DNA from: a virus
Virus record (IMG/VR): IMGVR_UViG_3300037466_003065
Span: 1 to 64,000 of that record
Reading direction: 5' to 3' (one strand)
Length of the DNA: 64,000 nucleotides
A program made the translations under genes and the position numbers. Below, piece after piece: positions 18,201 through 48,654 of the stretch (position 1 is the stretch's first letter; every line of letters begins with the position of its first letter). A model generated the notes under the pieces. The model saw nothing but the letters and a program-made list of their open reading frames with translations. It did not search any database and had not been told where the DNA came from.

Positions 18201-18217
18201 ATTTTTGGAGGTGTGCG

Positions 18218-18613: not shown

Positions 18614-18648
18614 CTTATGAACAATCCCGCGAATGGAACACGTCAAAG

Positions 18649-18678
18649 CTAAGCATTCGCGTGCTTACATGCCGATAC
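18649..18678 (+). promoter_or_regulatory. Sigma-28/WhiG-type promoter candidate (CTAAG...GCCGATAC)
   Basis: CTAAG at 18649-18653, a 17-nt spacer, GCCGATAC at 18671-18678, then exactly 7 nt to ATG 18686 with no SD. Confidence 0.6.
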
Positions 18679-18685
18679 AACCGGC

Positions 18686-19636
18686 ATGACCCGAGAAGAA
18701 AAACGAAAGGCTGCCGAGCTTCGGCGACGCGAGAGGCTCCAGCGTGAGAAGGGTGTGGTCGAGCAGTACAGGCAAGGCGTGCCCGTTCGTGAAATCACGG
18801 GTGCGGACATGGTCAATTTGTATCGCATACTGCGGCGGCACGGGGTTCCTGTTGCAAGAAAAGTAAGGCCCGACCTTTCCGTTGCTCGCATGGTGCCCAT
18901 GTACAAGTCCGGCATGGGCATCGAAGAGATAGCCACAGATCTCCAATGCAGCAGCTCGACCGTGTGGAAGCGGCTCAAGGGTCATGTGACCTTTCGCTCA
19001 TCCCACAAATCCGGCCCCGAGCACTGGAACTGGAAGGGCGGCTGCAACACAGGATGGGATGACCTGCGAGCCTCGCCCGCGTACCAGGCGTGGAAGGCTG
19101 CCGTTCATGCTCGCGACGGCGACGTGTGTCAGCTTTGCTCAGAACAGACTCTGGCGCCACATGCCCACCACATCATCATGAAGGTGGTGTCGCCAGAGCT
19201 GGTGTTCGAAGTGTCCAACGGCATCACGCTTTGCCCGCGGTGCCATAACTCGATCGTCAATACCCGCGAGGGCATCTTTGAGCCCTTCTTTCAGGACGCT
19301 GTCTCGACTGGTGGGCCGCTCCCGACGAGTATCTTCCGCTGGTTCGCCGAGGTACTCCTCGACATCCAACCTGCCCCTTGTGCCTGCGGCTGTGGTGATC
19401 TGACTCGGATCTTTCACGGGAAGCCCAACAAGTACATAGTTGGGCATCACGCTCGCGGCCGCAGGATGAGCGAGGGTCAGCGGGCGGCCATGCAGCGTCA
19501 CTGGTTCAAATCATTTCCGCAGGATCTGGTCGACAAGGTGCTCGCCCGCCGCGGAACGCCTCAGCGGAAGATTGCCAAGGAACTCAATGTGTCGCAGGGG
19601 TGGGTGTCCAAGATTCTGCTGCAGAACCCCGCCTAA
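18686..19636 (+). CDS. Free-standing HNH homing endonuclease with HTH and CxCGC/NUMOD-like modules, 316 aa
   Basis: CQLC...HAHH...NGITLCPRCHN HNH core, HWNWKGG motif, HTH-like MGIEEIATDLQCSSSTVWKRL and QRKIAKELNVSQGWVSKIL, and CACGCG. Lower GC than the flanks. Confidence 0.85.
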   Translation: MTREEKRKAAELRRRERLQREKGVVEQYRQGVPVREITGADMVNLYRILRRHGVPVARKVRPDLSVARMVPMYKSGMGIEEIATDLQCSSSTVWKRLKGHVTFRSSHKSGPEHWNWKGGCNTGWDDLRASPAYQAWKAAVHARDGDVCQLCSEQTLAPHAHHIIMKVVSPELVFEVSNGITLCPRCHNSIVNTREGIFEPFFQDAVSTGGPLPTSIFRWFAEVLLDIQPAPCACGCGDLTRIFHGKPNKYIVGHHARGRRMSEGQRAAMQRHWFKSFPQDLVDKVLARRGTPQRKIAKELNVSQGWVSKILLQNPA

Positions 19637-19640
19637 CTCG

Positions 19641-19670
19641 CGAAAGCCCAACCCCTCATCCAGCCGATCC
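19641..19670 (+). promoter_or_regulatory. Sigma-28/WhiG-type promoter candidate (CGAAAG...GCCGATCC)
   Basis: CGAAAG at 19641-19646, GCCGATCC at 19663-19670, then 7 nt to ATG 19678 with no SD. Confidence 0.5.
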
Positions 19671-19677
19671 TAATCCC

Positions 19678-20127
19678 ATGCGTTATTTCCGCGTCACCAA
19701 GGACGTCCTGCTTGACGAAGACGAGGATCAGACCCTGAAGGTCGGGGCGATCGGTGAGTTCGACGACACTACCGAATACTGCGAGTTCAAGGCCGACGAC
19801 ATCACCAACCTGCCGGAAAACACCCGCGCGGTGGTTAGCCAGGACGCGATGCTGCTTCACAAGGGCAGCTTCGTCGAGGTCGACGAGGACGGCGACCCCT
19901 TGGCTGACCCGATCCCGTTCTTCCAAACGCACATGGTCTCGGCGCCGCTGACCCACGTCGAGAAGGGTCGCCGCGTGCTCGCCGACATGGGCCGGGCTGA
20001 GGCGGTCAAGGAGCTGGGCGGCGAGACCGACCTGACCCTCGCCGACGCCGAGGTCGACCGCGTCGCCGGCAGGGTCTTCTTCATCTGGGCCCGAAAGGTG
20101 CACTTTACGGGCAAGCTGAACCGATAG
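19678..20127 (+). CDS. Hypothetical acidic protein, 149 aa (start corrected to ATG 19678)
   Basis: GC3 bias begins at MRYFRVTKD. The track's TTG/upstream extension overlaps the HNH gene. Confidence 0.7.
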   Translation: MRYFRVTKDVLLDEDEDQTLKVGAIGEFDDTTEYCEFKADDITNLPENTRAVVSQDAMLLHKGSFVEVDEDGDPLADPIPFFQTHMVSAPLTHVEKGRRVLADMGRAEAVKELGGETDLTLADAEVDRVAGRVFFIWARKVHFTGKLNR

Positions 20128-20133
20128 TTCAGC

Positions 20134-20694
20134 ATGCAGATTCGTACGAAGCAGCAGTTCTACCGCCTGTACGAACAGGGTGCGTTCGGCAACAAGCTCC
20201 GGACGTGGATGGGTGTCAACGCACTGGTTGACAGCGTGGCTAATGGCGGGTTCCACGGCACCGTCTCGGTGCGGGCCACCACGTTCGGGGGCGACAAGCT
20301 CGCCTCGTACAACGTCCCGGCGAGCGAAGCCTACCGCTTCCTCCGCAGTCGTGACGTCCACGACATGCAGCGGGTCGCCTTTAACGAATCTGCCCCCGAC
20401 CAACTACTCGTCCTGCAGGGCGAGATCCAGAACCTCGACGGTGTCCTGCACCTCCGCTACTCCCGCGTCCGGGGCAAGAAGATGCGGGACGCCATGAAGA
20501 CTGCCCTCCACAAGCGGGGCCTGGCTGCCCTCCACCTCCTCCGGGCCGTCATGGATCCCAGCAGCTTCGCCGACCTCGAGGCCCTGTGGGAGCTCTATCC
20601 CACGGCCGTCGTCGAGTTCGGCACCTACAGTCAGCCGGTGGGCTGCCTCGGCGGCGGGAGGAACAGCGTCTTCTGGGAAGTTCGGAACTACTAA
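20134..20694 (+). CDS. Hypothetical protein, 186 aa
   Basis: Clean ORF with phage codon usage, ending VFWEVRNY. No function recognised. Confidence 0.75.
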   Translation: MQIRTKQQFYRLYEQGAFGNKLRTWMGVNALVDSVANGGFHGTVSVRATTFGGDKLASYNVPASEAYRFLRSRDVHDMQRVAFNESAPDQLLVLQGEIQNLDGVLHLRYSRVRGKKMRDAMKTALHKRGLAALHLLRAVMDPSSFADLEALWELYPTAVVEFGTYSQPVGCLGGGRNSVFWEVRNY

Positions 20695-20703
20695 GGAACA
20701 CAC

Positions 20704-20904
20704 ATGCAAGAAGAACGAATGATGAAGTGGTTCGAGTTCTCCCACCTGCCGCCCCACCTCCAAGAGACGTCGGCGAGATTCCACGACCTCGCCACCCAAC
20801 TCGTGACCACGATCGCGCCGGGGCCGGAACGAACCGTCGCACTCCGCAAGCTGCTGGAGGCGAAGGACGCCGCCGTGCGGGCCAAGTTAAATCCGGGCTG
20901 CTAA
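20704..20904 (+). CDS. Small helical-hairpin protein, Acb2/Tad1-like candidate, 66 aa
   Basis: SD TAAGGA. WFEFSHLPPHLQ...PGPERTVALRKLLEAKDAAVRA is a widespread small phage protein pattern. The hairpin resembles the E-x3-A-x2-KL-x-EA motif recalled from Tad1/Acb2-hairpin proteins. Confidence 0.6.
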   Translation: MQEERMMKWFEFSHLPPHLQETSARFHDLATQLVTTIAPGPERTVALRKLLEAKDAAVRAKLNPGC

Positions 20905-20919
20905 TCCCCCCTTGATTAC
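20901..20919. promoter_or_regulatory. Palindromic operator copy CTAATC-N7-GATTAC
   Basis: CTAATC at 20901-20906 and GATTAC at 20914-20919. Overlaps the -35 of a sigma-70-like promoter. Confidence 0.65.
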
Positions 20920-20939
20920 TTTCACGTCTCCGCTAAGAT
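20912..20939 (+). promoter_or_regulatory. Sigma-70-like promoter TTGATT-N16-TAAGAT
   Basis: Near-consensus hexamers in the AT-richer gap upstream of the gene at 20967. The spacer is one base short of optimal. Confidence 0.5.
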
Positions 20940-20966
20940 GCTGCCTCCTATTCACAGGAGGATCAC

Positions 20967-21437
20967 ATGCCACTCACCCCCAAAGACGGCGCCATCGCCG
21001 TGTGCTCGGACGGCCATCTCGGCCTGGTCATCAGCGACGACCGCCACAACATGGGCTTTCCGGACGGGACGATGGGTCTCGCCTACGTCGGCATCCACCT
21101 GGGCGGGGCCCCGAAGGTCGACGGCAAGCCCACCGGACACCCCGAGAAGCAGCCCGGCAGCCCGTGGGCCAGCCGCAACCCTCGCGTCCTCGGCTACGTG
21201 GGCAGTATCGAGGACGCCTTCAAAGCCTTCTCGAAGGGCCAGAAGAAGACGACCTGGCAGGACGAACTGAAGGATCTGGTCGACTTCAGGGACATGGAGC
21301 CGGGGTGGGAGGCCGACTTCGTCAGTGCGATGGCCGACCGCCTGATCGCCAAGGGCCCGTTCAGCGATAACATGATCTCGAAGATCCACGAGCTCTGGAA
21401 CCGCTACTTCGGCGGCAACCGATCTTTCGTTTCCTAA
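20967..21437 (+). CDS. Hypothetical two-domain protein, 156 aa
   Basis: SD AGGAGG. N-terminal beta-rich part (CSDGHLGLVI...AYVGIHL...PWASRNP) and a C-terminal helical part (WEADFVSAM...KIHELWNRYF). Confidence 0.75.
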   Translation: MPLTPKDGAIAVCSDGHLGLVISDDRHNMGFPDGTMGLAYVGIHLGGAPKVDGKPTGHPEKQPGSPWASRNPRVLGYVGSIEDAFKAFSKGQKKTTWQDELKDLVDFRDMEPGWEADFVSAMADRLIAKGPFSDNMISKIHELWNRYFGGNRSFVS

Positions 21438-21462
21438 AGTTCGAATCCGGGCCGGCCGACCT
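21434..21462 (+). promoter_or_regulatory. Sigma-28/WhiG-type promoter candidate CTAAAGTT...GCCGACCT (TAAA-N16-GCCGA)
   Basis: TAAA at 21435-21438 (extended TAAAGTT), a 16-nt spacer, GCCGACCT at 21455-21462. The predicted +1 near 21470 falls just ahead of SD AAGGAG (21471-21476). Confidence 0.65.
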
Positions 21463-21483
21463 CATACGAAAAGGAGTCTTCGT

Positions 21484-21735
21484 ATGAGCGATCAACAGCA
21501 GCCCCAGATCCACCCGCCCGCGCCCGCGGTGAATCCCCTGATCAAGCCCGGCGCCCTTGCCGCCCAGTTCAAGGTCACCCTGACGACCCTCCGCAACTGG
21601 GAGAATCGCGGGCTGATTCCGCCGGCCATTCGTAAGGATGGCGGGCATCGCCGATACACCAATGATCACGTGGTGGCGATCCAGAAGTACCTCGGCCAGG
21701 CGGTTGAGGAGGCCGCCCCGTCCGAACCGAGGTAA
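21484..21735 (+). CDS. Stand-alone MerR-family HTH DNA-binding protein, 83 aa
   Basis: IKPGALAAQFKVTLTTLRNWENRGLIPPAIRKDGGHRRYT is a MerR-type winged HTH. There is no effector domain. Strong SD. Confidence 0.85.
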   Translation: MSDQQQPQIHPPAPAVNPLIKPGALAAQFKVTLTTLRNWENRGLIPPAIRKDGGHRRYTNDHVVAIQKYLGQAVEEAAPSEPR

Positions 21736-21738
21736 ACC

Positions 21739-24700
21739 GTGTCCGACAGCTACCCGCCGGCCCCGCAGCACAACAGCTTCAAGCTCCCCAACGCGTTCTG
21801 GCCGGACGGGTCTGCGTTCCAGTACGACCTGCCCCCGATGACCGTGATCCGCATGGACACGGTGATCGGGGAGTTTGGCGTTGGTAGCGAGGACGAGGAC
21901 GGCATCTACACCCTTCCCCGCCTGCCCCGCAACCAGTGGAACGGTGTATTCAACGGGTGGTCGAACTGGGCCCAGAAGTTCCAGAAGGACTGGCGGTTCG
22001 GCGCCATGTCCGACGAGAACGCCCTCGCCCAGCTCTTCCCCGAGACCTACGACCCGTGGATGTTCACGGAGTACGTGTTCAACGGGGCGGCCCGCGACAG
22101 CGATCTCCCCACCCAGTCCGCACAGGACGTCTCGATCGTCGCCCCGCCCCTGATCGTGCCGGCCGTGACCCGCACGTACACCGTCGTCGACGGCGCCAAG
22201 GTGCTCGACTCGACGACGCCCGCCTTCTACAACGACCCGTCCACCACCGTCGTCCCCAGCGAGCACGAGGTAGTGTGGGAACTGGAGGAGGAGTGGGTCT
22301 CGACCGCCTCCGGCAAGCACTACTGGACGAGCGAGCTCGCGGCCATGAGCTGGCTGGAGCCGGAGACGGAGAACCGGGACTTCACCAAGTTCCCGTCCCC
22401 CGAGAGCCCCAACAAGCGGCGGGTCATCAAGCAGGCCGTCGAGAAGGTCAACTCGGGCGTCCGGCTCTACCGGCTGCCGGTGTGGTCGGAGTCGACGCGG
22501 TGGGGCGAGAGCCAGAACATCCCCGAGCGGATCGTGAACATGACCGCCCCGCGGGAGTACGTCCGGCCGGACGGCCTCTTCACCGGCCGCATCGTTCCGC
22601 ACGTCACGATCGAGTGGGGCATCCCGCTCTATGACAACCTCACGAAGTCGCAGGTCGGCCAACAGCGGGTCATCAAGTACGACTTCTACGCCGAGGGTTT
22701 CGGCTCCAAGAACACCCGCATCGCCCTGTGGGACACCGCCGTCTCCGGCGTGAACGGCCAGCCCGACGCCGTGTTCACCTACGCCCCGCTCCCGCCCGCC
22801 GACACGAGCACGGGCGACCAGATCCTGCTCCCCAAGAACTCGCTCGAGCAGGTTCGCCTCGGCGCCGCCCCGTACGGCGACGGCGACCTGATCCACCGCG
22901 GGTGCCAGTTCTGGAAGGGGAGCGTCGAGGGCGGGGTCGGCAAGTGCCAGTGCACGTACTTCACCCAGTTCCAGTCGCAGTTCCAAGTCCAAGCGAGCCA
23001 AGATGAGGTCTATAACGCCGACGTCGAAGTCCCCACGATTCCCGTTGCACCCTTCCTGGATAGTCAGGAGGAACTGGAGGTTGTGTACGAGACTGGGTCT
23101 GTGCAGGTCAACGTCTTGGACGCCGGGAAGGCGGTATCTTACGTCAAGAGCGGCCAGCAGGTAACCGCGATCCGCATCACGCAGGCGAACGGGTCACCGG
23201 CCTACACGCTCCGGCCCCTCGGCAGCGGCGGGTTCGTCGCCAGCCCCGGATCGAGCGCGACGCTCCACATCCGCCGCTGGCGGATCGCCCGCCCGATGCC
23301 GCACAAGACGCTGTGCGCGATGTACGACGGCCCCACCGAGGCCCAGCCGAACGTCGACCCCAAGCAGCGGTACTTCGCGGCCGGCGGCAAGTGCTCGTTC
23401 TACACCCCGGTCGGCCGCCGCGTCGTCGCGTCCTACTCGATGCAGGCCAGCAACGGCGCCGAGTGGGCGAACATGCAGCGGAACGTGCCGCCCGGGTACA
23501 AGAAGGCGTGGTACGAGACCGGCACCGGCCAGTCCATGATGGACATGGCGGGCCTCGGCGGCGGGTTCGGCGTCGTGACCGGCCTCGGGTTCGCCTACGG
23601 CCAGAACGTCCAGACGCCCGACGCGTTCACCGGCGGCCTCCCACAGGAAGACTTCCAGCGGGTCAGTGTCGAGTACGTGCCCGAGATCGTCAGCCTCGCC
23701 GGCAAGTCGACCTACTACGCCACGTCGGACGGCAAGCCGCACGGCCAAGACCCGGAGAACGACATCCGCGTCCGGCCGGCGAGCGGCTTCAACATGATCG
23801 ACTTCAAGGAGCAGCAGCCGTACCCGGGGGTGGACACCGTCTTCTTCGCGATGGTGAACCAGAACAACTACCGACTCACCCGCAACGTGATGCACTGCTA
23901 CAACCAGTCGCGGTGCAACAAGATCATCAACTCGCCCGGCTCCAACGTCGGCTGGTCGCGGGGCCGCTACTCGGCCGTCAACTTCACGAACCACGAGCTG
24001 CGGATGCCCGGATACCCGGGCGTCGACGGCACCGACAGCCAGTGCCACTACGGCGACCACCAGTGCCCGTTCATGCGGGTCGACCGCCGCGGGGTCGAAT
24101 ACAACGAGAACTACAAGGTGCTCCGGCTCGAGATCCTGATCCCGTTCCGGATCAACGGCATCGCCGGCTTCGAGCAGCAGAGCATCCAGGAGGCGTTCAT
24201 CCACCCGACGACCGGCAAGGTCGTGTCGGTCACCCAGGCCCAGATGGAGGCGGGCGGCGTGCTCGCCGGCGCGATCTGTGTCGGCGTCCGTCCGGAGCCC
24301 GGCACGCCGCCCGCCGCGGTGCCCGTCCTCGGCCACTGGCAGCCCGTCCTCACCGACGACAACGGCCAGAAGTGGCGGGTCTACTTCTACTACGACCGCC
24401 CGAGCTGGGATCCCAAGCACACGCAGTCCCGCGTGTCGGCCCACATCGTGCAGTTCGACGACAAGGATCAGCCCGTCTACACGAAGATCCCCGCCGCCCT
24501 GCAGGCGTTCGCGCTCGCCGCGTACGGGCAGACGAACAAGATCCCGTGGAACGTCGAGATCCTCGACGACTACAAGGAGCCGGCGGGCAACGCGGTCTAC
24601 CCGACCAACAACGCGGCGTTCGCGGGCGGTCGCCACCCCGAGTACAAGGATCACTCCAAGCGGGGCCGCCAGATCATCGGCAAGGACGGCGGGTACACCG

Positions 24701-27700
24701 ACATGAGCTTCCGCGAGGGGGCGACGCCGACCAATCAGTTCGGCGGCCCGGGGTGGAACACGGCGCCGGTGGCCGGCGTCATGAAGCGGGGGTACTGGAC
24801 GCAGCGGTACGGCGAGTGGATCCTCGACGGCCGCCCGATCGACACGACGGGCAACTACGTCCCCGCCCGCCCGCGGATGCGGAACAAGCCCGCCTCGTAC
24901 GCCGACCGCACGCCGATCGACGGCGAGCCGCGGGACACGATCGTCAAGGACGGGGCGGCGGCCGGCGACCCGGGCGACTGGGCCCTGGTCGGGCACACCT
25001 ACTCGAACGACACCAAGGCGTACCTCGCGTTCCTGGAGACGGTCTGGGACAACGACCTCCCCGACGACCCGAACAGTGACGAGCCGGGGACGAAGCTGCG
25101 GATCATCCCGCCCAACCCCGCCCAGCAGTGGCTCCCGCGCGAGCGGTTCTGGTTCCAGTGCGACAAGTGCGGCATCGACTTCTCCGAGGAGGAGGTCAAT
25201 GTCATGGCCGACCTGAAGTACGCGGACAACTCGCCCGTGTACCCACTCCCGGCCGGCACGACCGGCCCGACCGGCAAGGCCGCCGGCGCCGCGGCGTGCG
25301 GCTGCCCCCGTCGCGATGGCGGTGTCGTGCGGATGGTCGGCCCCTACGACCACTTCATGAAGTGCTACTCGCGGGGCACCGTCGACATTTGGGCGCCGCC
25401 CGGCACCACGGTCAAGCACGACGCCTTCTTCTGGAAGGCCCCGGCCATGGTCACGCGGGTGGAGCACGACCAGCTCCTCCGCAAGCTCGGCATGTACCAC
25501 GCCACGGGCGGCGGCTACAGCTTCGCCGGCCTCACCCCGTCCCTCGACCAGTTGGGTCGCCTGCCCACGACCTACGCCCGCGGCTACCAGCCCGGCATTG
25601 ACCGCCAGTTGGTCGCCCCGTGGGCCGGCCCGGGCGACACGGTGGCGACCGTCCGCACACGACTGACGCCCGTGTACGGCCTCACGCCGGCCGACAAGGC
25701 GATCCTTCAGCGGGCCGACCAATCCGCCCCCGCGATCGTCGTCGACGAGGCTGGCACCACCATGGCGACCGGGGACATCTTGAACTTCTGGCGAACCGTC
25801 GAGGGCGACCAGGGATACCGGATCGGCCTCCCGATCGGCGCCACCACCCCCGCCCCGGACGCCGTGCTCGCCGAGACGCTCGTGACGGCCGACGAAGTCC
25901 GCCCGGTGCGGTCGGACTTCGCCGCCGGCTACCTCGGCGAGCGGCAGTTCCAGGATCGCCTGCAGTCGTGGCTGATCGGCGTCGTCCTCGGCAGCCTCCA
26001 GAACTGGAGCAGCTCGATCTACGCCCAGAAGAACCTGCTCGCCGACTCGCTGTCGGCCCGCGGCATCAACCCCGACGCCGCCCGGCCGATCGACCCCAAG
26101 ACGGGCGACCTGATCGACATCGACGAGCGGCTGCTGTCGCCGTACAGCGTCAGCGAGTCGACCGGCCTGCACATGGTCACGGCCCCGCACATGAAGCGGC
26201 TCCGCAACCGCGTGCTGCCGATGCTGGCGTACGACCTGACGATAGAGACGTACAAGGCCGGCGGCGACTTCACCGACCGCGCCCATCTCGGCAACCTCAA
26301 GCGGTTCGGCGAGCAGAAGAAGCCGTTCGCCTACCCCAAGCTCGGCACGATCATCCCGCAGGTGATGGCCGCCACCGAGACCGGCAAGGACTCCTACTTC
26401 GAGTGGGAGGTCGGCGACGTCGAGGGCACGAAGGCCCGGGCGTACAACCCGACCGGCACGACCTGGTGGCGGATGAACCAGCGGGCCGGCCAGATCAAGC
26501 GGAGCGGCGGCACCAACCAGCTCCACCTCGACGACGCGACCAAGAACCCGGACGGGACGTACGCGTGGGACGGGTACACGGGCGACACGATCACGTCGTG
26601 CGTGACCTACTTCATCCACGGCCGCCTGCCCATGGACAAGGAGATCGTCCGTGCCTTCCTCGTCTACGAAGCCCAAGACCCGCCCTCCTACGAAGCGATC
26701 GGCTGCCAGGGGCAGTACACCGGGTTCGTCGGGACGCGGGACTTCTACGACCCGAGCCAGATCAATAACCTCGAGTACGCGGGGCACAGCTTCTGCTTCT
26801 GGCAGCACTATCACCCTTTTACTACGAACCATGAGGGTGACGATCCTCGCCCGTACTACGGGTTCTTCGCGTACAAGCACGTCACGTACGGGCACTCGCA
26901 CCCGGACTGGTTCAAAGACCACGGGACGATGACCAATACGGAGACGCCGTGGCTCATGAGCGAGCCGGACGACATGGTCGTCTTCACGCAGGCGTTCACG
27001 GGCATCGACCTGAAGGACTATGCGCCGTTCGTGGCCGACGACTCGGACGCCACCTACGCCAAGCAGGTGGCCCTCCTCGGCCACAACTACGCCGACAGCT
27101 CGCTCGGGTGGAACGTCCAGCAGGACGCCCTCAAGCCGTGGGCATGGGGCCAGCCGCTCCAGCAGAACAAGACCGAGTACCAGAACTGGAAGGAGGTCAG
27201 CTACCAGACGTTCGGCACGCTGGAGGATCGGTACGCGGTTCGGATCCGTGCGGCCGTCAACACGATCGAGGCGGTGCAGACCGGCAGCTACGTCGGTGCC
27301 GATTTCCGGGGCCTGATCAACGAACGGCTCCGGCAGCCGATCTCGGGCTGGCTGAACATGACTGGGTACGACACGTCCGGCATGTTCAACAAGTACGTCC
27401 CGCTGGTCGAAAAGACGTCGGACTTCTCCCCGCCCGAGCCGCAGGAGGAGAACCCGCACAGCACCACGGCGACCGGCGGCAACGGCAAGAACCAGGCCGG
27501 CCAGACGAAGCGGGTCATCGACATCACGAAGATCTTACAGAAGGTCTATAACGACCGCGTCGACCGCTTCTACACCGTCCAGTTCGGGGCCAGGTACGAC
27601 GACCTCTTCAACCTCGTCAAGGGCCGCACGGACACCAACCTCGGCCTCATCTCCCGCTTCCACCAGGACGCCGGCGACGAGATCCCGTGGTACGACTGGA

Positions 27701-30060: not shown

Positions 30061-30069
30061 GAGTTTGGA

Positions 30070-30363: not shown

Positions 30364-31498
30364 AATCAAGATCCACCGCCTCCCCAAGGGGTACAACCCC
30401 AGCAACGACCAGGACGTGCAGTTCGCCACCGGCGACGAGCTCCTGCCGTTCGTCGACAAGCCCGACCTCCTGCAGGACGCGTACACGCTGACCTGCGTGG
30501 TGCCGGTCGTCATGGGCGACTGCTACCCGTTCGACAAGGCCGCCGGCCGGTCGTCCTACAACCTCGGCACGGGCGGGGCCGTCGACCAGACCCCTACCGG
30601 CATCACACTCCCCGAGCTGCTGATCGGCCCCGTGGGTGACCTCGAGCTGCGGGTGCTCGACGCGTCCAACGCCCCGATCGACCCCGCGACCTGGTCGGTC
30701 GCCTACACGGGGAGCACGCCGACCTCGATCCGCTTCACGGGCACCCCTCCGACCGGCGCCAAGGTGTCCGCGTGGAAGCTCGTCGCCACACCCACCGTCA
30801 ACTGGGCCCTGCCCGGCAGCGGCGTCTACGCCGGCCCCAACTCGGCCTGCAGCCTCCTGCTCGCCTACGCCAACGGCGGCACGACGGCCGTGAAGATGAC
30901 GGCCACCGCGATCTCCTCCGGCCCCACCTCCCACCTCGTCTTCGGGTCGGCCCAGAACAGCGTCAAGGTCAGCTACTACTACACGGCGACCAAGGGCACG
31001 CACTTCTGCGGCGACCACGTGAACTGGGTCGGCGACCACTACATGACCTGGCCCGACGTGTTCGTCGGCACCAACGACTACCCGGGCGACTCGACGATCG
31101 ACCCCAACACCAGCCTCCCCATCGACCCGGGCCGCGTCCCCGCCGAGCGGAGCCCGAGCACGTACTCGATCAACTACCGCGACGGCGTCGTGATCTTCCC
31201 CGACACGATCGACACGACCGCCCAAGACCTGCAGGGGAACGACATGGGCACGGTCAAGGCCAGCTACGCCTACCTGCAGGGCATCGACAACGTGACCGGC
31301 ATGCAGCTCGACCTGGTCGCCAGCACGGGCGGCAAGCGGTTCCGGGCGTCCACCGAGACGATTTTCACCGCGGCCCACGGCAAGCGGTGGATCACCCGGA
31401 ACAACCAGTACACCCCGCTGAACGTGTACGTGAACGGCGTGAAAACGCCGGCCACGCTGACCGCCCTGAACGAGACGTTGACCGTCAAGACTTCGTAA
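30350..31498 (+). CDS. Putative structural (baseplate/fibre) protein, 382 aa
   Basis: T/G/Y-rich beta-type sequence overlapping the upstream stop. YSINYRDGVVIF resembles phage tail-protein turns. Confidence 0.65.
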   Translation: MGAPKIKIHRLPKGYNPSNDQDVQFATGDELLPFVDKPDLLQDAYTLTCVVPVVMGDCYPFDKAAGRSSYNLGTGGAVDQTPTGITLPELLIGPVGDLELRVLDASNAPIDPATWSVAYTGSTPTSIRFTGTPPTGAKVSAWKLVATPTVNWALPGSGVYAGPNSACSLLLAYANGGTTAVKMTATAISSGPTSHLVFGSAQNSVKVSYYYTATKGTHFCGDHVNWVGDHYMTWPDVFVGTNDYPGDSTIDPNTSLPIDPGRVPAERSPSTYSINYRDGVVIFPDTIDTTAQDLQGNDMGTVKASYAYLQGIDNVTGMQLDLVASTGGKRFRASTETIFTAAHGKRWITRNNQYTPLNVYVNGVKTPATLTALNETLTVKTS

Positions 31499-31509
31499 GG
31501 ATTTGACCC

Positions 31510-33780
31510 ATGTCCGCCCCCTCGAACACCATCGTGAACATCGTCGGCAGTGCCGGCAACGGCCAGTACACCGGCATCAAGATCAACGCGGACGGGACGC
31601 TGACGCCCGACCGCAAGGTCACGCTGCAGCTCGCCGCGCAGGGCGACCACCCCCTGCAGTACCGGATCGAGACGACCGGCGACGTCGAGTCGACCACGAA
31701 CACCGACGCCACGCTCGCCGCCAACGTCGGCGTCTGGATCAACTTCACCGACGCCTCGGGCAACCTGCTGGGCAACGAGACCAAGCAGGTCAAGTTGCGG
31801 AAGACGAGTGCCACGCCGGCCGCCGACGACTTCAACCTCGACGCCAACGCCTCGGTCACCGTCACGTTCAAGGACACCAACGGCCTGACGACCGCGGCGA
31901 CCGCCACGATCCGCCTGAACACCCGCATCTACCAGACGGCCCACAAGCCGCTCCGGCCCTCGTCGTCCGGGTACGATGTCCTCCTCCGCGAGATCTACAG
32001 CGGCAGCGACCGCCCGATCCCCCACACCGAGCAGTTGAGCAACAGCTTCGTGCGGGCTTGGCCCGACATCTTCTACCCCACCACTCACTCCTACCCGACG
32101 CTCGCCAACGGCGACATCGACGAGGCGGCCGCGATCGCCATGAACGGCATTTCCGACGCCAGTCACGACGCCGTCCAGCTCGTCAACCGACAGGTGTCGC
32201 CGTTCGACCTGATCGTCTCCTACGACTCGGAGGGCCGCCCGGTCACTACGAACTGGACGACGAACGGGACGAAGGACTACGGGCACATGCTCAGCTCGAA
32301 CGCCACGCAGCTCACGAGCTGGGCCCTGAACAACGACGGGTACGGGGACATCAAGCTGGAGTTCGAATACTTCTACCTCGACGGCGGGGTGTGGGGGCCG
32401 CCGTACAACCCGGTGGCACCGCGCCGCGGCGACTACCTAGGCGTGTACGACGCGACCGATCCGGACGCGATGGAGACCTACGTCGACTCGCTCGGCCGCA
32501 CGCGGTGGCGGCTGAAGAACGCGGCCGTCCTGCGGGAGTTGGCCGCCTACGCCGGCTCCGGGCACGACGTGTATGACCTCAAGACGGGCGCCCGAATGAA
32601 CTCCGGGGCGACCGGCTCGTTCACCACGCCGACGTTCACGGCCGTCGACCGGATCGTCCTGATCCTGTACACCGACGCCGCCGGCGCCGCGAGCGGGTTC
32701 AAACTCAAGTCGGGCCCCCGGCACCCCCTGGTGTGGACGAACTTCGACGTCGACCCGGCCAACGGACAGCTCTGGATCCACAAGAGCACCAACTACGCGA
32801 CGACGGCGGGCAGTGCGGACACGACCCAGAAGATCATGATTTACGACTACTTCGACGCCGTCCTCTCGTACGACTACGAGACCGGCGACGTGATCTTCGA
32901 CACCGACAAGACGGGGAGCACGGTCACCGTCGACGTGTCCTACTGGGCCAGCGACACGCCGACGTCCCGCACGTGGCTCGCGGGCAACGACGACCTGATC
33001 GACTACGAGGACGCCAGCGTCTTCGTCGCCCCGACCGGCACGTCCACGATCACCGCCGGCATGCGGACGGACACCTACGAGACGGACGGCGACGGCCGCG
33101 TCGTCCAGCACGGCACGTGGGACAAGGATCGCGGCGTGTTCGAGTTCGACGCCGGCTACGTTCCGGGCACCGGCAAGCGGGTGTTCAGCGAGTACAACTT
33201 CCACACCTACCTCCGACTCACCCCCGACGACCACGGCGACCTCGAGTGGGAAGACCCGGTGATCGTCGCCGACAACACGCCCGCGTACCGCGACTACACG
33301 TTCGCCGACGTGAAGATCACGAACGAAGGGTCGGCGATGCTGGAGAACGGGTTCCTGAAGTTCGTCGCCCGCGGGTACAAGAGCACGAACGACGGCCAGG
33401 CCATCCCGGGCGCCGACGGGATCATCGACTCCGTGCTCGACATCAACCGCCCGTGGGACGTGCAGAAGGGGACGGCCGACGAGACGTACAACAAGATGGC
33501 CATGGCCATCCTGCCCGACTACATCTGGCCCCCGAGCCTCGCCAAGAACAACGACGGCGGCGGGTACAGCGGCGACGACTACTACAACAAGACCGCGCAG
33601 GGCATCCTGAGCCAGTGGAAGACGAAGAGCTTCGGCACGCTCGCGGCACGCACGTTCATGTTCGGCCGGGCGGTCTGGGTGCTCGGCGGCGAGGGCGGCA
33701 CGAACTACCCGGCCACTACGGCCGGCGAGAAGCGGTGCTCGATCGAGGTCAGCGGCCAGTTCTACAACCAGACGATCTAG
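31510..33780 (+). CDS. Putative structural protein with a CUB-like domain, 756 aa
   Basis: SD TAAGGA. IKLEFEYFYLD...GDYLGVYDA...IVLILYTDAAGAASGFKL at about 32347-32710 follows the CUB consensus with an insertion. Confidence 0.65.
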   Translation: MSAPSNTIVNIVGSAGNGQYTGIKINADGTLTPDRKVTLQLAAQGDHPLQYRIETTGDVESTTNTDATLAANVGVWINFTDASGNLLGNETKQVKLRKTSATPAADDFNLDANASVTVTFKDTNGLTTAATATIRLNTRIYQTAHKPLRPSSSGYDVLLREIYSGSDRPIPHTEQLSNSFVRAWPDIFYPTTHSYPTLANGDIDEAAAIAMNGISDASHDAVQLVNRQVSPFDLIVSYDSEGRPVTTNWTTNGTKDYGHMLSSNATQLTSWALNNDGYGDIKLEFEYFYLDGGVWGPPYNPVAPRRGDYLGVYDATDPDAMETYVDSLGRTRWRLKNAAVLRELAAYAGSGHDVYDLKTGARMNSGATGSFTTPTFTAVDRIVLILYTDAAGAASGFKLKSGPRHPLVWTNFDVDPANGQLWIHKSTNYATTAGSADTTQKIMIYDYFDAVLSYDYETGDVIFDTDKTGSTVTVDVSYWASDTPTSRTWLAGNDDLIDYEDASVFVAPTGTSTITAGMRTDTYETDGDGRVVQHGTWDKDRGVFEFDAGYVPGTGKRVFSEYNFHTYLRLTPDDHGDLEWEDPVIVADNTPAYRDYTFADVKITNEGSAMLENGFLKFVARGYKSTNDGQAIPGADGIIDSVLDINRPWDVQKGTADETYNKMAMAILPDYIWPPSLAKNNDGGGYSGDDYYNKTAQGILSQWKTKSFGTLAARTFMFGRAVWVLGGEGGTNYPATTAGEKRCSIEVSGQFYNQTI

Positions 33781-33789
33781 GAGTAGGAC

Positions 33790-36700
33790 ATGGGCCTCAC
33801 CATCGACAGTGTCGCTCCCTCGACGAGCGGCACGCTGGGCGACTACGACATCACGTTCACGGTGTCCGGGCCGGCGTCGAGTCTGTACTCGCTCGGCCTC
33901 TCGTTCACGACCAGCGTCAACTTCTCGAAGACGCCGTTGTTCCTGACCGACTCGGCCGCCAAGGTGCCGCCGGGCACCCATGTCGTGACATGGCGAACGG
34001 TCGCCCTCGCCGGCGTCGACGCGGTCATCCCGACGCCCGACCAGATCGGCCGCAACACGGCCGACGTCCTGATCTACGGGTCGCTCAACATCGACGGCGT
34101 CACGCAGGCCGACGTCACGTTCGGGCCGTACCACGTCGACAACACCGCGTCCCCGACCCCCACGGGCGGGGGCAGCAACAACACGTTCAAGTTCCCGGTC
34201 GGCGGCTGGGCCCACCCGGCCGTCCTGCCCGTCGCGTTCGACGAGAAGAACCCGCCAGTCGCCGGCGAGATCACGATCGTCATTCCCGACAAGGTCAGCG
34301 ACCTCTCGCCGGTGCGGTGCGAGCCGTTCGTCTACTGGCGGGCGTACAGCGAGGGCATCATCGAGCCGTCGTCAGGCAGCGGCGTCCGACCCGGATCCGA
34401 CGCGGGGTACGGCCAGTACCCGGCACAGGGGCCGAACAACACCAACGTCCGCGGCCTGTCCTGGCCCGCCCCGATCGCGAAGGACAACGTCGCCAACGGG
34501 AAGCGGTGGGACGACTGGGTGTTCGACCTCGACGGCGCCTACGAGCTCGCCATCCTGACTACCAACCAGCGGTGGATGTTTCGCGTGCCCCGCGACGACG
34601 GCCGCGACACCACGCTGCCGATCCCACTGACCAGCCACGAGCTGATGCGGGGGCAGTATCTGAAGGGGTACGTCGACAAGGACGGCACGACCAAGGAGTA
34701 CCCGGACGGATACGACTGGAACCTGCGGCCCGCCTGGCACCGCGGCCGCGAGGTGTGGGACACGGGCGACGCGTGGATCCAGGTCGCCACGTTCGAGCTC
34801 GTCGACTACATGGTCTGCGACACGTGCCACGGCCGCGGGTGGGTGGTGTCCGGCACGTCGGCCCCGTACGACCGCGTCGGGTGCCCCAACCCCACGTGCG
34901 ACAACGGGAGCGACAAGGGCAAGCCGTACCGCGAGCAGGTCTGGAACCCGAACATCCTGCAGTACGTGTGGTACATGCGGACGCGGCACATCCTGCGGCC
35001 CGTGTGGCACCGCCTGAGCCGGTGGATGGACGACAACCCGCTGTCGCCCCGCCGCCGGGACGGCTTCCCGATCACCGGCCAATTCGCGCTCGACCGAACG
35101 CAGTTCATCATGGGCGACAAGGTCAGCGACCTCGACGCCGTCCTCGCCGGCAACGGCGACATCTCCTACTACCTGCTCCAGACGCGGCACGGCACGACCC
35201 GGCGACTGCCGGCCGACACCGAGGTGGACTGGCCGATCGTCCGCTCCAACAACACGCCGGCGCCGGTGCGTCAGGCGGGCCAGTGGGCGGGCGTGGCGGG
35301 CGACACGTTCGTTTCGCCGACGCTGGTGCAGGAGGACTTCGACCTCGCCTGGCCGGTCGCCGGCGAGCTGGCCGGCAACGTGAAGTTTAAGGACGTCGGG
35401 CCGGTCTCGGGGGAGGTCGGGCCGTCCAAGTCGCAGTTCCTCATGGGGCAGGCAGACCCCGACTCGCACCCGCTCATGGCCAACCGCATGCGGCCGACAC
35501 AGCCGGGGAGCCTGATGGTGGGCGGGGCCATCCCCAAGCTGGCCCTGACCCGCGACCTGTTGTTCCGGTTCTTGCAGGGGGTGTGGGACGCGTACAACAC
35601 GATCCATTTCCAGTACACCGAGAGCGACACGACCTGGCTGCACATGCAGTTCGCCCAGTTCTTCCCGGACAACTCGCACACCGACTGGCAGGACGTGCGG
35701 GCCGACAACGCCGTCTTCGACAAGGTCGCCGGCGTGTGGCTGGTTCCGCCCCACCAGTTCTGGGCCTACTGGGATACGCGGGACGCCGCCCAGTTCCCCG
35801 AGGGCGGCACGTTCCGCCTCCGCATGCGGCAGTACAGCAAGCCGGCCGACGAGCCGGCGTCGTTCGGGCAGTTCGTCGTCTCGACCCCGTTCGTGCTCGC
35901 GCACGGCGTGGCCAACCCGATCAGCATTCTGAAGGTCGAGTACGAGAAGTGGAGCCACACGGTCGGCATTACGTACCGGGCCGACGATTCTCAGGCCGAC
36001 GCCTACACACTTACCCGCTTCTGGTACAGCGTCGACGACGGCGCGACGTGGCAGGAGATCTCCAAGGGCGACATCGCCGGCGAGACCGTCTACGTTTCTG
36101 CCGCCCCCGGATCGAACCTACACCAGATCACGTGGTTCGCGGGCCACTACCCGGTCACCGCGGGCAACGACTACCGGATCAAGATCGAGGCGGTGCCGAG
36201 CAAGTTCCTCGACGACATGGTGATCCCGTTCCTGAAGTGGCTGGCGCCGCGGAACCCGTACATCGACGACGCCGAGCAGGAGCTGACGACGTACCTCGGG
36301 ACGGTGCACACCCAGACGTTCAACGCCACGACGGGCCGGTGGGAGGCGTCGCCACCGTACCGCACCCCGGGCCAGATCGACACGCTGGAGGCCGAGCTGC
36401 TGCGGGTCAAGAACCACCCGGACGGCGGGCCGAACTGGTTCAACTTCTTCACCCTCTCCGGCGGCGTGTACACGCTGACCGACCCGGCCGGCTACAACGC
36501 GTGGCTGCTGACAGCGTACGCCTCCGGCGAGACGCACGGCAACGCGATGGCCCGGGTGAACACCCAGCTCGCGGACATCCTGAACAACAAGCTCCCGGCC
36601 GCACAGGACACGATCGCGGCCGGCGAGCGGGCGATCCGCAAGCGGCTGATCGACCAGGGGTACTACGCCGAGGATCACTTCGTCAACGGGCACGAGGCCG

Positions 36701-38631
36701 TGTTCGCCCCCGTCGTCGCCAACCGGTCGGGTGAGGCGTTCCCCAACCAGAACATCGAGCGGTGGTGGAACTTCCGCGTCCAGAACGCGGCCACCGGGGG
36801 GACGCGGGTGTTCAACGACTCCGGCCTGTACGACCCGCAGGAGATTACGACGCTGGAGCAGGTCTTCTACCGCGTCCAGATGGATCGCCTGCCGACGTTC
36901 GACTCCCAGACGGACGGACGGCCGCTCCGCGACTTCTTCTACGACCACACTGGCGCCCGCATCGGGCAGGCGACGTTCTTCGGCGGCCAGTCCACCCCGC
37001 CCCCGGCCACGGCCGACGCGACCCAGGCGGCCCGTGACCAGGCCAACGCCCCGGCGAACCAGCAGCAGGCTGGCGACGCGTCGACCCCGACCGCCCCGTC
37101 CGACCCCGAGCAGCCCGTCGTCGTCGGCGGGGCCCTGAAGATCCTGCCCCAACTCCTGCCGGGCGAGCAGGGCGGCGACCAGCTCGCGGCCGGCGACACC
37201 GAGTTCGACGGCGACTACCAGTGGCGAGTGGCGGCGTACAACTACATCTTCGACGCCATGCCGTTCCTGCCCCGGCCCACGGTCGACGCCCTCGCGTGGA
37301 GCGCGGACGGCCTCACGCTGACCGTGAACTATACGGCCAAGGCCCACGCCGGCGTCCAGACCTCGTCGATCGCCAACGACGGCGCCGGCAACGTCTACGG
37401 CGTGCGGGTCAGCAAGGCGTTCCTCGACACCCCGACGTGGGACGGCCCCTGGTTCGTCAACTTCGTCTCGGACAACCGGGCGGCCATCACCGAGCCGTCC
37501 CGGCAGCAGAACGGCATCCCGTGGACGCCCACGGGCAAGGATCGCCCCCAGCCCTTCTGTATGTACGACGAGCGGATCCAGCAGTACGTGATCATGACGA
37601 CGAAGAAGAGCTTCGACGGCACGTTCCGGCTGGTCACCTCGCGGGCCGCCTCGCTCCCCAAGGCGTGCGAGTACGACACGCTCTTCACGGGCGAGCAGGC
37701 GGCCGGCATCTTCGGGGCCATGATGCTGGTCGTGAACGGCACGTACCTCCTGTTCGCGACCGTCGCCCCCACGAGCGGCCCCGCCTACGTCGCGGTCAGC
37801 TCGAGCGCGGACGGGGAGACCTGGGGCCCGCTCGTCCCGTGCGCCGGTATCGTCGGAAGCCTCCCGTGGGTTTGCTACGACGGCGGCGTTTACCACATGT
37901 GGTACCAGCGGACGGCGGGCAACACCGCCGTGTACTATGCGACCTCAACGGACACCCAGACGTGGACGCCCCAGAACAGCGACGCCCCCGTTTACCAGCA
38001 GGCGGGCGACGTCGGCCGGCCCAGCGTGGTCAGGGTCAACGGGTCGTGGGCGATGTACCTGAACGACTTCGCGATCAACTCGATCATCAGCCTCGTCTCC
38101 GCGGACGGCGTCACCTGGAGCGGCCGCCGCGTCGAGCTGGGCGCCGTGTCCTACCTCGACGGCATTGGGTTCACGACCGCCCACCCGGTCAACGCCGCCG
38201 CCTACGTCGACGTGTACCAGGGCAACCCCGAGGTGTTCCTGATCCTCAACTATGTCCTGCCGGACAACAGCAGCGCCGTGTTCACGGCCCGGCTGGAGTC
38301 GCGAGACTGGCTCCCCCTGCGGTTCGGCGTCGTGCAGGCGGGGGCGAACCAACTCTTCTTCGTCCCCTTCTCGTCGGCCGGATCGACGCGGACGTTCACG
38401 GTCAACGCCGACCTCTACGGGTTCCAACAGACCGACCCGGTCAAGGTGCGGATCGACTTCCCGAAAACCGCCACGACGCCGGACAAGATGGAGTTTTATC
38501 GCCAGAGCGACTGGGTGACGATTACCAACAAGGAGGAGCTCGGGGCGTACATGAGTCCCCAGCCCTACCACTATTCCAGCAACCTTTTGAACTACCCCTA
38601 CCTGCGTCTGGGCACCAATGGCAACTCTTAA
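33790..38631 (+). CDS. Multi-domain adhesin/receptor-binding candidate (Ig/FN3-like domains, Zn finger, Asp-boxes, GH-like 5-blade propeller), 1613 aa
   Basis: SD AGGA. CDTCHGRG at 34816-34839 and CPNPTCDNG at 34882-34908. Asp-boxes SVDDGATW, SSADGETW, STDTQTW and SADGVTW. FN3-like YQWRVAAYN. Blade motifs PWVCYDGGVYHMWY and RPSVVRVNGSWAMY. Confidence 0.75.
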   Translation: MGLTIDSVAPSTSGTLGDYDITFTVSGPASSLYSLGLSFTTSVNFSKTPLFLTDSAAKVPPGTHVVTWRTVALAGVDAVIPTPDQIGRNTADVLIYGSLNIDGVTQADVTFGPYHVDNTASPTPTGGGSNNTFKFPVGGWAHPAVLPVAFDEKNPPVAGEITIVIPDKVSDLSPVRCEPFVYWRAYSEGIIEPSSGSGVRPGSDAGYGQYPAQGPNNTNVRGLSWPAPIAKDNVANGKRWDDWVFDLDGAYELAILTTNQRWMFRVPRDDGRDTTLPIPLTSHELMRGQYLKGYVDKDGTTKEYPDGYDWNLRPAWHRGREVWDTGDAWIQVATFELVDYMVCDTCHGRGWVVSGTSAPYDRVGCPNPTCDNGSDKGKPYREQVWNPNILQYVWYMRTRHILRPVWHRLSRWMDDNPLSPRRRDGFPITGQFALDRTQFIMGDKVSDLDAVLAGNGDISYYLLQTRHGTTRRLPADTEVDWPIVRSNNTPAPVRQAGQWAGVAGDTFVSPTLVQEDFDLAWPVAGELAGNVKFKDVGPVSGEVGPSKSQFLMGQADPDSHPLMANRMRPTQPGSLMVGGAIPKLALTRDLLFRFLQGVWDAYNTIHFQYTESDTTWLHMQFAQFFPDNSHTDWQDVRADNAVFDKVAGVWLVPPHQFWAYWDTRDAAQFPEGGTFRLRMRQYSKPADEPASFGQFVVSTPFVLAHGVANPISILKVEYEKWSHTVGITYRADDSQADAYTLTRFWYSVDDGATWQEISKGDIAGETVYVSAAPGSNLHQITWFAGHYPVTAGNDYRIKIEAVPSKFLDDMVIPFLKWLAPRNPYIDDAEQELTTYLGTVHTQTFNATTGRWEASPPYRTPGQIDTLEAELLRVKNHPDGGPNWFNFFTLSGGVYTLTDPAGYNAWLLTAYASGETHGNAMARVNTQLADILNNKLPAAQDTIAAGERAIRKRLIDQGYYAEDHFVNGHEAVFAPVVANRSGEAFPNQNIERWWNFRVQNAATGGTRVFNDSGLYDPQEITTLEQVFYRVQMDRLPTFDSQTDGRPLRDFFYDHTGARIGQATFFGGQSTPPPATADATQAARDQANAPANQQQAGDASTPTAPSDPEQPVVVGGALKILPQLLPGEQGGDQLAAGDTEFDGDYQWRVAAYNYIFDAMPFLPRPTVDALAWSADGLTLTVNYTAKAHAGVQTSSIANDGAGNVYGVRVSKAFLDTPTWDGPWFVNFVSDNRAAITEPSRQQNGIPWTPTGKDRPQPFCMYDERIQQYVIMTTKKSFDGTFRLVTSRAASLPKACEYDTLFTGEQAAGIFGAMMLVVNGTYLLFATVAPTSGPAYVAVSSSADGETWGPLVPCAGIVGSLPWVCYDGGVYHMWYQRTAGNTAVYYATSTDTQTWTPQNSDAPVYQQAGDVGRPSVVRVNGSWAMYLNDFAINSIISLVSADGVTWSGRRVELGAVSYLDGIGFTTAHPVNAAAYVDVYQGNPEVFLILNYVLPDNSSAVFTARLESRDWLPLRFGVVQAGANQLFFVPFSSAGSTRTFTVNADLYGFQQTDPVKVRIDFPKTATTPDKMEFYRQSDWVTITNKEELGAYMSPQPYHYSSNLLNYPYLRLGTNGNS
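34287..35133 (+). repeat. 19-bp exact direct repeat CGACAAGGTCAGCGACCTC (34287-34305 and 35115-35133)
   Basis: Both copies were read directly. They are 828 nt (276 codons) apart, in frame, and both encode DKVSDL. Confidence 0.7.
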
Positions 38632-39010
38632 CGCGACGGCGACCGGCATCAGCCCCACGTTCCCGATCACGAACGAGGAGCTGCAGCTCGACTACAACAC
38701 GAGCGTTACGAAGATCGACATCGACGGCGTGCAGCCGCCCACGTTCGGCCCGGACGGCGGGTACAGCCGCGCGATGGATCTGAGAAATCTATGGTTTCCT
38801 TGGATTGACGAACCGATTGTGCCGGCCCGGTTCGACGGCGTGTGCTTTTACCTCGGCGCCGTGTCAAATCGTCCGACCTTCATCAAGGATTACCTCTCCA
38901 TCTCCCTGATGCGTGCCACGGATTACATTCTGGAACCCGTGTATCAGGGGATGCTTAGGGCTACGGTCGATGGGGTAATACCTATTCCTCCCCCCAGCGA
39001 TTCCGAGTGA
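38618..39010 (+). CDS. Hypothetical protein, 130 aa
   Basis: Overlaps the upstream stop. The 5' half has the usual GC3 bias and the 3' half is AT-richer. Confidence 0.65.
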   Translation: MATLNATATGISPTFPITNEELQLDYNTSVTKIDIDGVQPPTFGPDGGYSRAMDLRNLWFPWIDEPIVPARFDGVCFYLGAVSNRPTFIKDYLSISLMRATDYILEPVYQGMLRATVDGVIPIPPPSDSE

Positions 39011-39045
39011 CAAATTAGCCGAAGATATGCGCGGAGGCTGTCACT

Positions 39046-39522
39046 ATGGCTGAGCGTGTATCCACTGCGAATCGCGTGCTGACCTGGCTCAGTATCTCCA
39101 TTGGTGCGATCGGCTTGCTGGCCACCATGGGGAACATCTGGATCTACAAGGATCGGCAGGACACTTTGCGGACGGACTTCGATAAGCTGAAGGCCGACCA
39201 CGACACCAAGAACCAGACCTTCTCGATGAACGACACGATCTTCGCGTCGTTCATGGAACAACAGCGGGCCCTGAACGGCAAGGTCGAACGCCACCTCGAG
39301 GACAAGAACATCCACGTCACCGAGGAGCAGATGCGGAACCTGGTCACCGCCCAGCTCGGCCCCATCACCAGCAGCGTGGGCAAGGTGGAGGCGACCGTCT
39401 CGGCGCAGGGTGAAGCCATCAAGCGGATCGAGGGCACGACCGACAAGGTACTGCAGCTCCTGCAGCAGCAGATCCTCCAGCCGCCCACCCGCAAGACCGC
39501 GGTCGAGCAGGCTTCGAACTAG
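39046..39522 (+). CDS. Membrane-anchored coiled-coil protein (holin/lysis-accessory-like), 158 aa
   Basis: SD GGAGG. N-terminal hydrophobic helix VLTWLSISIGAIGLLATMGNIWIY followed by heptad-like sequence. Confidence 0.65.
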   Translation: MAERVSTANRVLTWLSISIGAIGLLATMGNIWIYKDRQDTLRTDFDKLKADHDTKNQTFSMNDTIFASFMEQQRALNGKVERHLEDKNIHVTEEQMRNLVTAQLGPITSSVGKVEATVSAQGEAIKRIEGTTDKVLQLLQQQILQPPTRKTAVEQASN

Positions 39523-39548
39523 CGGCCCGTCCAACCCAAAGCCGATAA
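39519..39548 (+). promoter_or_regulatory. Sigma-28/WhiG-type promoter candidate with perfect -10 GCCGATAA
   Basis: GCCGATAA at 39541-39548, a weak -35 (CTAGC at 39519-39523), and exactly 7 nt to ATG 39556 with no SD. Confidence 0.6.
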
Positions 39549-48625: not shown

Positions 48626-48654
48626 AGTGTAATCCCTTGGGGATTATTTCGCAA
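48626..48654 (-). promoter_or_regulatory. Sigma-70 promoter TTGCGA-N17-TACACT for the recD2...fliA operon
   Basis: On the minus strand: TTGCGA at 48654-48649, a 17-nt spacer, TACACT at 48631-48626, about 36 nt before the ATG. Confidence 0.75.
48629..48647. promoter_or_regulatory. Palindromic operator copy GTAATC-N7-GATTAT
   Basis: Fills the spacer of the recD2 promoter and overlaps its -10. An extra half-site GATTAC lies at 48595-48600. Confidence 0.7.

Follow-up and report, generated by a model that had tools for sequence, protein, structure and literature searches.

Can a phage-encoded sigma factor and the promoters that it reads both be recognised from genome sequence? The question is raised by IMG/VR virus record IMGVR_UViG_3300037466_003065, a phage genome of 184,787 bp that is rated complete, the first 64 kb of which (the window, with a G+C content of about 65%) forms the stretch analysed here. 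An earlier note on the window had described four intergenic plus-strand sites with a GCCGA(T/C) box and a CTAAAG-like upstream element, and had taken them to be the late promoters of a sigma-28-type factor encoded by the phage itself. We report that the phage carries a FliA/WhiG-family sigma gene and that a tighter word, the heptamer GCCGATA, is strongly overrepresented ahead of genes. With a probability of about 0.65, the GCCGATA boxes serve as -10 elements in promoters of the sigma-28 type, which would be read by the phage FliA after an early phase served by sigma-70. Three points are inferred from the sequence: transcription starts at the boxes, their reader is the phage sigma and not that of the host, and the expression they drive is late.

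The GCCGATA heptamer and the phage FliA

An unbiased k-mer count over the sense-oriented intergenic DNA of the genome yielded four motif families, namely the ribosome site, an 18-bp iteron, a TAATCCC palindrome and the heptamer GCCGATA. Of the 17 copies of this last word in the genome, 10 are intergenic and in sense orientation, against 0.9-1.0 expected (p ~7e-8), while the antisense count is 0. The ten copies are found at 18671, 39541, 54151 (minus strand), 89003, 111153 (minus strand), 164199, 166037, 168555, 177834 and 182887. Seven of them fall within the virion/packaging block, which accounts for 10.3% of all intergenic DNA in sense orientation (p = 1e-5). This block, with the large terminase, portal, major head and tape-measure genes, occupies 164-185 kb of the genome and runs on into the plus-strand genes at 1-42 kb of the window, among them one for a 3991-aa tape-measure-like protein. 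The enrichment ahead of genes and the bias towards virion genes that the earlier note had anticipated are thereby found genome-wide for the heptamer. Three of the six perfect octamers in the genome are intergenic, the further seven intergenic boxes match at 7 of 8 positions, and the last position of the box is frequently G, T or C.

The looser GCCGA(T/C), by which the box had been defined before, is too common to be informative; it occurs 288 times in the window and is depleted between genes, an abundance explained by Ala-Asp codon pairs. Combined with the upstream element it gives 27 matches in the genome, of which 5 are sense intergenic where 1.4 are expected; the definition is too permissive. 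All four sites are present as described, and a C(T/G)A-type element begins 21-22 nucleotides (nt) upstream of each of their boxes (Table 1), but the enriched heptamer is contained in those at 18671 and 39541 only and is absent at 19663 and 21455. The agreement with the sigma-28 -10 octamer GCCGATAA, which has a CGA core and a GC extended -10, declines in the order 39541 (8/8), 18671 (7/8), 19663 (6/8) and 21455 (5/8). As candidate promoters, 39541 and 18671 are graded strong and 19663 moderate, and 21455 is weak at the -10 while having the best -35.

The sigma factor itself is readily classified. The protein passes the FliA/WhiG family model TIGR02479 with 228 bits against a cut-off of 189.6, has the Pfam regions 2, 3 and 4, and aligns end to end with the solved WhiG and with the E. 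coli and P. aeruginosa FliA chains. By these sequence criteria it is a true FliA/WhiG member, as the earlier note had held. The closest relatives are FliA proteins of Tepidisphaeraceae/Phycisphaerae (Planctomycetota), with 58-67% identity, which suggests a Phycisphaerae planctomycete as the host of the phage and, judged by the same similarity, a derivation of the gene from hosts of this clade. In a tree, the phage protein is placed among the Phycisphaerae FliA on a very long branch, about 25 times the median host branch, and its position among them is not resolved. The divergence is unevenly distributed. In an alignment with 11 host FliA proteins, the phage protein agrees with the host majority at 89% of residues both in the segment of regions 2.4-3.0, with its DNA-reading arginines, and in the 4.2 helix (31/35 and 25/28 identities); the SRVSQ motif of helix 4.2, of which the S and Q are -35 contacts in P. 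aeruginosa FliA (PMC12784957), is intact. The region 3.2/4.1 linker segment, on the other hand, has kept 11 of 29 host-invariant residues and replaced the other 18, and this may have altered contacts with an anti-sigma factor or with core polymerase. The gene has a strong Shine-Dalgarno (SD) sequence and no box of its own upstream; it is the final gene of a leftward operon and lies downstream of the sigma-70-type promoter at 48654.

Table 1. Sigma gene, boxes and promoter-like sites in the window.
Feature	Coordinates	Strand	Description
Promoter-like site 1	18649..18678	+	CTAAG at 18649; box GCCGATAC at 18671-18678; heptamer present
Promoter-like site 2	19641..19670	+	CGAAAG at 19641; variant box GCCGATCC at 19663-19670; moderate confidence
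Promoter-like site 3	21434..21462	+	-35 CTAAAGTT at 21434-21441, best of the four; -10 GCCGACCT at 21455-21462, weak; uncertain
Promoter-like site 4	39519..39548	+	CTAGC at 39519; perfect (8/8) box GCCGATAA at 39541-39548
Phage fliA	41989..42864	-	FliA/WhiG-family (sigma-28) factor; Pfam regions 2, 3 and 4; TIGR02479
Sigma-70-type promoter	48626..48654	-	TTGCGA-N17-TACACT; heads the leftward recD2-thyX-fliA run
Box absent from the earlier note	54144..54151	-	GCCGATAG; adjoins the stop of the upstream gene
Second sigma-70-type promoter	57957..57985	-	TTGCAC-N17-TACACT; head of the leftward block

Box geometry and the genes behind the boxes

The octamer of the P. aeruginosa fliC promoter extends from -15 to -8, and the -35 element from -36 to -30 (PMC12784957). 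Four boxes of the phage (18671, 19663, 39541 and 166037) lie exactly 7 nt from an ATG that has no SD sequence, with GCCGAT thus 15 nt ahead of the ATG, an arrangement for which an estimate from base composition gives about 0.07 chance occurrences. An SD-like 4-mer is missing before the four starts concerned (18686, 19678, 39556 and 166052) and is present at 149 of 217 genes. The 7-nt gap, the lack of an SD sequence and the published sigma-28 geometry together place the predicted +1 on the A of the ATG, and the four messages would consequently be leaderless. Three of the four sites of the earlier note have a predicted +1 that coincides with a start codon in this way. The other boxes are followed by leaders of 16-124 nt that contain an SD sequence.

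The -35 side is far less well defined. In sigma-28 promoters a TAAA (TCTAAAG) precedes the box by about 15 nt, but no heptamer box of the phage has all four of these bases. A weaker signal emerged when the boxes of the phage were pooled with those of G006, a relative of 193.7 kb and 65% G+C that is syntenic with the phage over most of its length: CT occurs 20-22 nt upstream of 9 of 16 intergenic boxes and of 3 of 23 non-intergenic copies (Fisher p = 0.006), a difference that amounts to merely p ~0.07 when counted as a de novo discovery. This weak CT/A-rich patch sits 1-2 bp further upstream than the -35 of model promoters, so that the upstream element described previously is in the correct place, but weak. 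The site at 21455 is the reverse case, with a very good TAAAGTT and yet only GCCGAC as its -10. Given so weak a contribution from the -35, the promoters would be essentially -10-driven.

The genes behind the four sites do not correspond to the "late structural strand" to which the set had been assigned, as they encode an HTH-HNH endonuclease, a MerR-like regulator and two proteins of no known function, and no recognisable virion protein. The endonuclease gene (18686-19636; Pfam HTH_23/HNH) follows site 1, and its ATG at 18686 provides the predicted +1. Site 2, the box of which lacks the A at position 7, precedes the gene for a 149-aa protein without known function, with the ATG at 19678 as the predicted +1. 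Site 3 is followed by a leader with an SD sequence, by the MerR-like gene (21484-21735) and by a gene for a 2773-aa protein. GCCGAC, the only -10 match at site 3, is not enriched between genes; in the E. coli aer promoter GCCGAC is functional given an intact TAAA and an activator (PMC2859248). At the place orthologous to site 3, G006 has another type of promoter. Behind site 4 lies the gene of a conserved 441-aa protein of no known function, whose predicted +1 falls on the ATG at 39556, a start codon confirmed by the N-terminus of the G006 orthologue.

Nor are the boxes confined to one strand, as had been claimed, for those at 54151 and 111153 are on the minus strand. The former precedes by about 70 nt the leftward gene for a class II ribonucleotide reductase (54075-50272; Pfam Ribonuc_red_lgC and Ribonuc_red_2_N). 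It has no -35-like element. The boxes at 168555 and 177834 stand directly behind terminator hairpins, one of which follows the major head gene. At 89003-89090 of the genome the box GCCGATAT is followed after 7 nt by GTG-ATG and a 10-codon open reading frame (ORF) and, within about 60 nt, by a strong GC hairpin with a T run, an arrangement that looks like a self-contained short transcription unit for a small RNA or a micropeptide and that sits in a 300-nt gap ahead of a Gp80-like fibre gene. The interval that separates the box at 164199 from its ATG at 164225 contains a perfect palindrome with 7-bp arms (164207-164224, GAGAGTG ... CACTCTC), which would form a hairpin at the extreme 5' end of the predicted transcript.

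Sites 1 and 2 are located in an accessory hot spot among tail genes (18201-21437), where G+C is reduced to 0.59 and where the endonuclease gene is accompanied by small genes without known function. The 16-mer consisting of GCCGATCC and then TAATCCCA is identical at 19663-19678 of the window and at 167695-167710 of the genome; at the latter position it forms the left arm of a palindrome with 8-bp arms, overlapping the ribosome site of the next gene. PHROGs provided no function for ten proteins of the window.

The leftward block at 42-58 kb, which encodes ThyX, RecD2, the class II ribonucleotide reductase and lastly the sigma factor, is associated with a separate promoter class, as the earlier note had recognised. 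The pattern TTG-N16-18-TAnAnT has seven matches in the genome, six of them intergenic against 0.4 expected, and these include the promoters at 48654 and 57985. A scan of 42-58.6 kb with the standard sigma-70 consensus returned zero promoters, while the looser, class-specific pattern did match. Palindromes of the form TAATCCC-N3-6-GGATTA(C) number 13 sense and 8 antisense intergenic copies genome-wide; those in the window are at 48593-48654, 57969-58006, 58372 and 20902, and the promoters at 48654 (TAATCCC/GGGATTA) and 57985 each have one in the spacer, an operator-like placement. Copies of the 18-bp near-palindrome TGTCGCAGAATTGGGACA occur at 151.4-151.9 kb and 158.8-158.9 kb of the genome and at 58040-58100 of the window, where they occupy the divergent region separating the leftward from the rightward block.

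Relatives, the host clade and competing explanations

A two-step cascade is proposed. Host sigma-70 RNA polymerase would transcribe the leftward early operons from the TTG-N17-TAnAnT promoters; one of these operons ends in fliA, so that the phage FliA would be made; with its host-like DNA-reading surfaces it would redirect RNA polymerase to the boxes; and box-led transcription, partly leaderless, would then start mainly at operon heads of the virion/packaging block and at a few accessory genes. The earlier claim that the boxes are the regulon of the phage's own sigma gains from the presence of a cognate sigma and from the enrichment of the heptamer, but is weakened by the boxes of a relative that has no fliA.

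Relatives were found by alignment of head proteins and belong to a family of phages with genomes of 110-195 kb. Scans of IMG/VR with one protein at a time, the 441-aa protein or the major head protein, gave no matches, and no related cultured phage was found by DNA or by the sigma protein. A FliA/WhiG gene is present in none of the four long relative records that were examined; two low-GC relatives, G008 and G009, were used for gene content only. In the relative L195 (contig FUIF01015750.1) the positions orthologous to 177834 and 182887 each carry a box, and the 21 kb of this contig contain a further two between genes. After the major head gene, most relatives have a terminator and then a promoter of the CCGTAnnAT type, whereas this phage and L195 have a terminator and then a perfect box. 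In G006 the promoter-like class GAATC(C)-N13-CCGTAnnAT has 5 of its 9 copies between genes, against 0.43 expected, and is found at places orthologous or equivalent to 177834, 21455, 18671 and 89003/89100; minus-strand examples are at 129527, 119989, 94936, 89972 and 82386. A very abundant CCCCGGAAGTT repeat is also seen in the G006 genome. A small sigma-like gene beside the packaging genes is common to G006 (150710-151456), G008 and G009, and no orthologue of it is detectable in this phage. No tRNA genes are present in the phage; at the equivalent of 18.2-21.4 kb of the window G006 has an array of 36. In other viral contigs that carry FliA, boxes are found directly ahead of their own fliA.

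The host clade has the same box. In about 50 of 80 Phycisphaerae fliA loci an (A/G)CCGATAA block is conserved at 75-230 nt ahead of the gene, in the order A-rich stretch, GAAA(A/C)C, (A/G)CCGATAA, 4-5 nt and AAGTGG. This block is probably the autoregulated fliA promoter of the Phycisphaerae clade, and its conservation upstream of host fliA shows that the box is in use there.

A number of observations weigh against the proposed cascade, and some of them come from G006, which lacks fliA. Its genome has 6 intergenic boxes where 1.06 are expected, none kept at positions orthologous to those of the phage, and one of them abuts the 5' end of a tRNA, a misfit with a transcription start 8 nt downstream. 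As for the host, no clear box was seen in flagellin upstream regions, and in five Phycisphaerae genomes the matches to TAAA-N14-17-box did not exceed a reversed-pattern control and had non-flagellar genes downstream. A proper TAAA at canonical spacing is absent at most boxes of the phage, the strict consensus TAAA-N15/16-GCCGATAA has zero matches in its whole genome, and point mutations in the -35 abolish the E. coli aer promoter (PMC2859248). Outside the virion block there are three boxes, including one ahead of a nucleotide-metabolism gene, and the major head gene has no box of its own. Finally, the phage has two further sigma-like genes of unassigned specificity.

Among the alternatives, the one that survives best is that the boxes are real sigma-28-type promoters served mainly by the FliA of the host, with the phage fliA having another or an additional role, such as topping up or replacing host FliA held by an anti-sigma factor, or reprogramming flagellar or cell-cycle genes of the host. 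We regard this as unlikely, though it is compatible with a phage FliA acting on the same boxes and the two do not exclude each other. Since a syntenic relative without fliA has boxes, there is no strict coupling between the box set and a phage-encoded sigma; two or three of the G006 boxes, which lie mostly inside the tRNA array, even keep the 7-nt spacing to an ATG. With DNA-reading segments so nearly identical, phage and host FliA should moreover read the same boxes, and the long branch and the 18 replaced linker/4.1 residues suggest changed partner contacts. The enrichment is nevertheless greater in this phage, with 10 boxes for 0.9 expected, than in G006, with 6 for 1.06, and the position after the major head gene, where G006 and several relatives use the other promoter type, is taken by a perfect box in this phage.

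An improbable alternative is that the heptamer serves not as a promoter element but as a signal tied to start codons or acting at the RNA level, concerned with translation initiation, processing or protein binding. The rigid 7-nt spacing at four boxes, the G006 box next to a tRNA and the lack of a conserved -35 would be in keeping with it. The start-associated sequences of cluster K mycobacteriophages resemble the boxes in being short, conserved and set at a constant close distance ahead of several starts. The cluster K words include the ribosome-binding region, however, whereas the fixed-distance starts of this phage have no SD sequence and other copies of its box stand at variable distances with an SD sequence in between. 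Six other boxes, at 16-124 nt from the start, fit promoters in this respect, two boxes are directly behind terminators, and the 7-nt spacing equals the published distance from box to +1.

About as improbable is a reading of the boxes by one of the two other sigma-like proteins, with the likeness to sigma-28 a coincidence. These sigma-70-family ORFs, at 160138-161517 and 162043-162747 of the genome, do exist, and the weak -35 is unlike that of model sigma-28 promoters. Both proteins, which share 24% identity and have no counterpart in G006, are two-domain and resemble extracytoplasmic function (ECF) sigma factors, with TIGR02937 as their sole TIGR family match, and ECF-like sigma proteins generally read quite different -10 motifs. 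The box, by comparison, agrees with the sigma-28 -10 in 7-8 of 8 bases, and the phage encodes a cognate sigma whose reading residues are conserved.

That a GC-rich sequence chosen by eye is an artefact of chance or composition can draw on the commonness of GCCGA(T/C), the degenerate definition of the -35 and the bare GCCGAC at 21455, but with enrichment, strand bias, block bias and fixed spacing of the heptamer each far above expectation and two positions conserved in L195, this hardly credible reading is largely refuted for the heptamer set and possible for site 21455 alone.

Proposed sigma-28 promoters in a phage setting

Compared with bacterial sigma-28 (FliA/SigD/WhiG) promoters such as P. 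aeruginosa fliC and the E. coli class 3 flagellar promoters (PMC12784957, PMC2859248), the boxes of the phage have the same -10 octamer and, if the ATGs are the +1, the same distance from box to start; a cognate sigma with conserved reading residues is likewise present. They differ in mostly lacking TAAA, with the upstream signal displaced by 1-2 bp, and in their targets, which are virion and accessory genes with several predicted leaderless messages.

The proposed use of the phage FliA also has parallels among phages. T4 gp55 and SPO1 gp34 are early-expressed phage sigmas that redirect the host core polymerase to late genes by way of a short -10-type word, and their late promoters have little or no -35, as proposed for this phage. 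Those factors are highly diverged and phage-specific, whereas the sigma described here is a full three-domain cellular FliA from the host lineage and, unlike them, would read a promoter class of the host itself. A literature search found no paper on late regulons of phages governed by a FliA/WhiG-type sigma.

How such an arrangement could have arisen is suggested by the relatives. Most of them combine a small family-specific sigma beside the packaging genes with promoters of the GAATC-N13-CCGTAnnAT type. This phage has a host-derived FliA instead and, at a number of equivalent operon heads, sigma-28 boxes, which stand behind the major head gene, where the accessory hot spot begins and ahead of the fibre-like gene. 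A tentative possibility is sigma capture with promoter turnover, in which the phage would show in progress the rewiring of a late regulon onto a sigma obtained from the host, and a relative with few boxes and no fliA could represent an intermediate state that borrows the FliA of the host.

If the proposed cascade is true, a regulatory switch would be readable in both its parts, sigma and promoters, from the genome of a phage that is uncultured and whose host phylum has been little studied. It would offer a ready transcription map of the late operons and, for a planctomycete system, a number of mRNAs predicted to be leaderless. The relatives with fliA, without fliA and with the other promoter type would then provide a natural comparison for the change of sigma factors in viruses.

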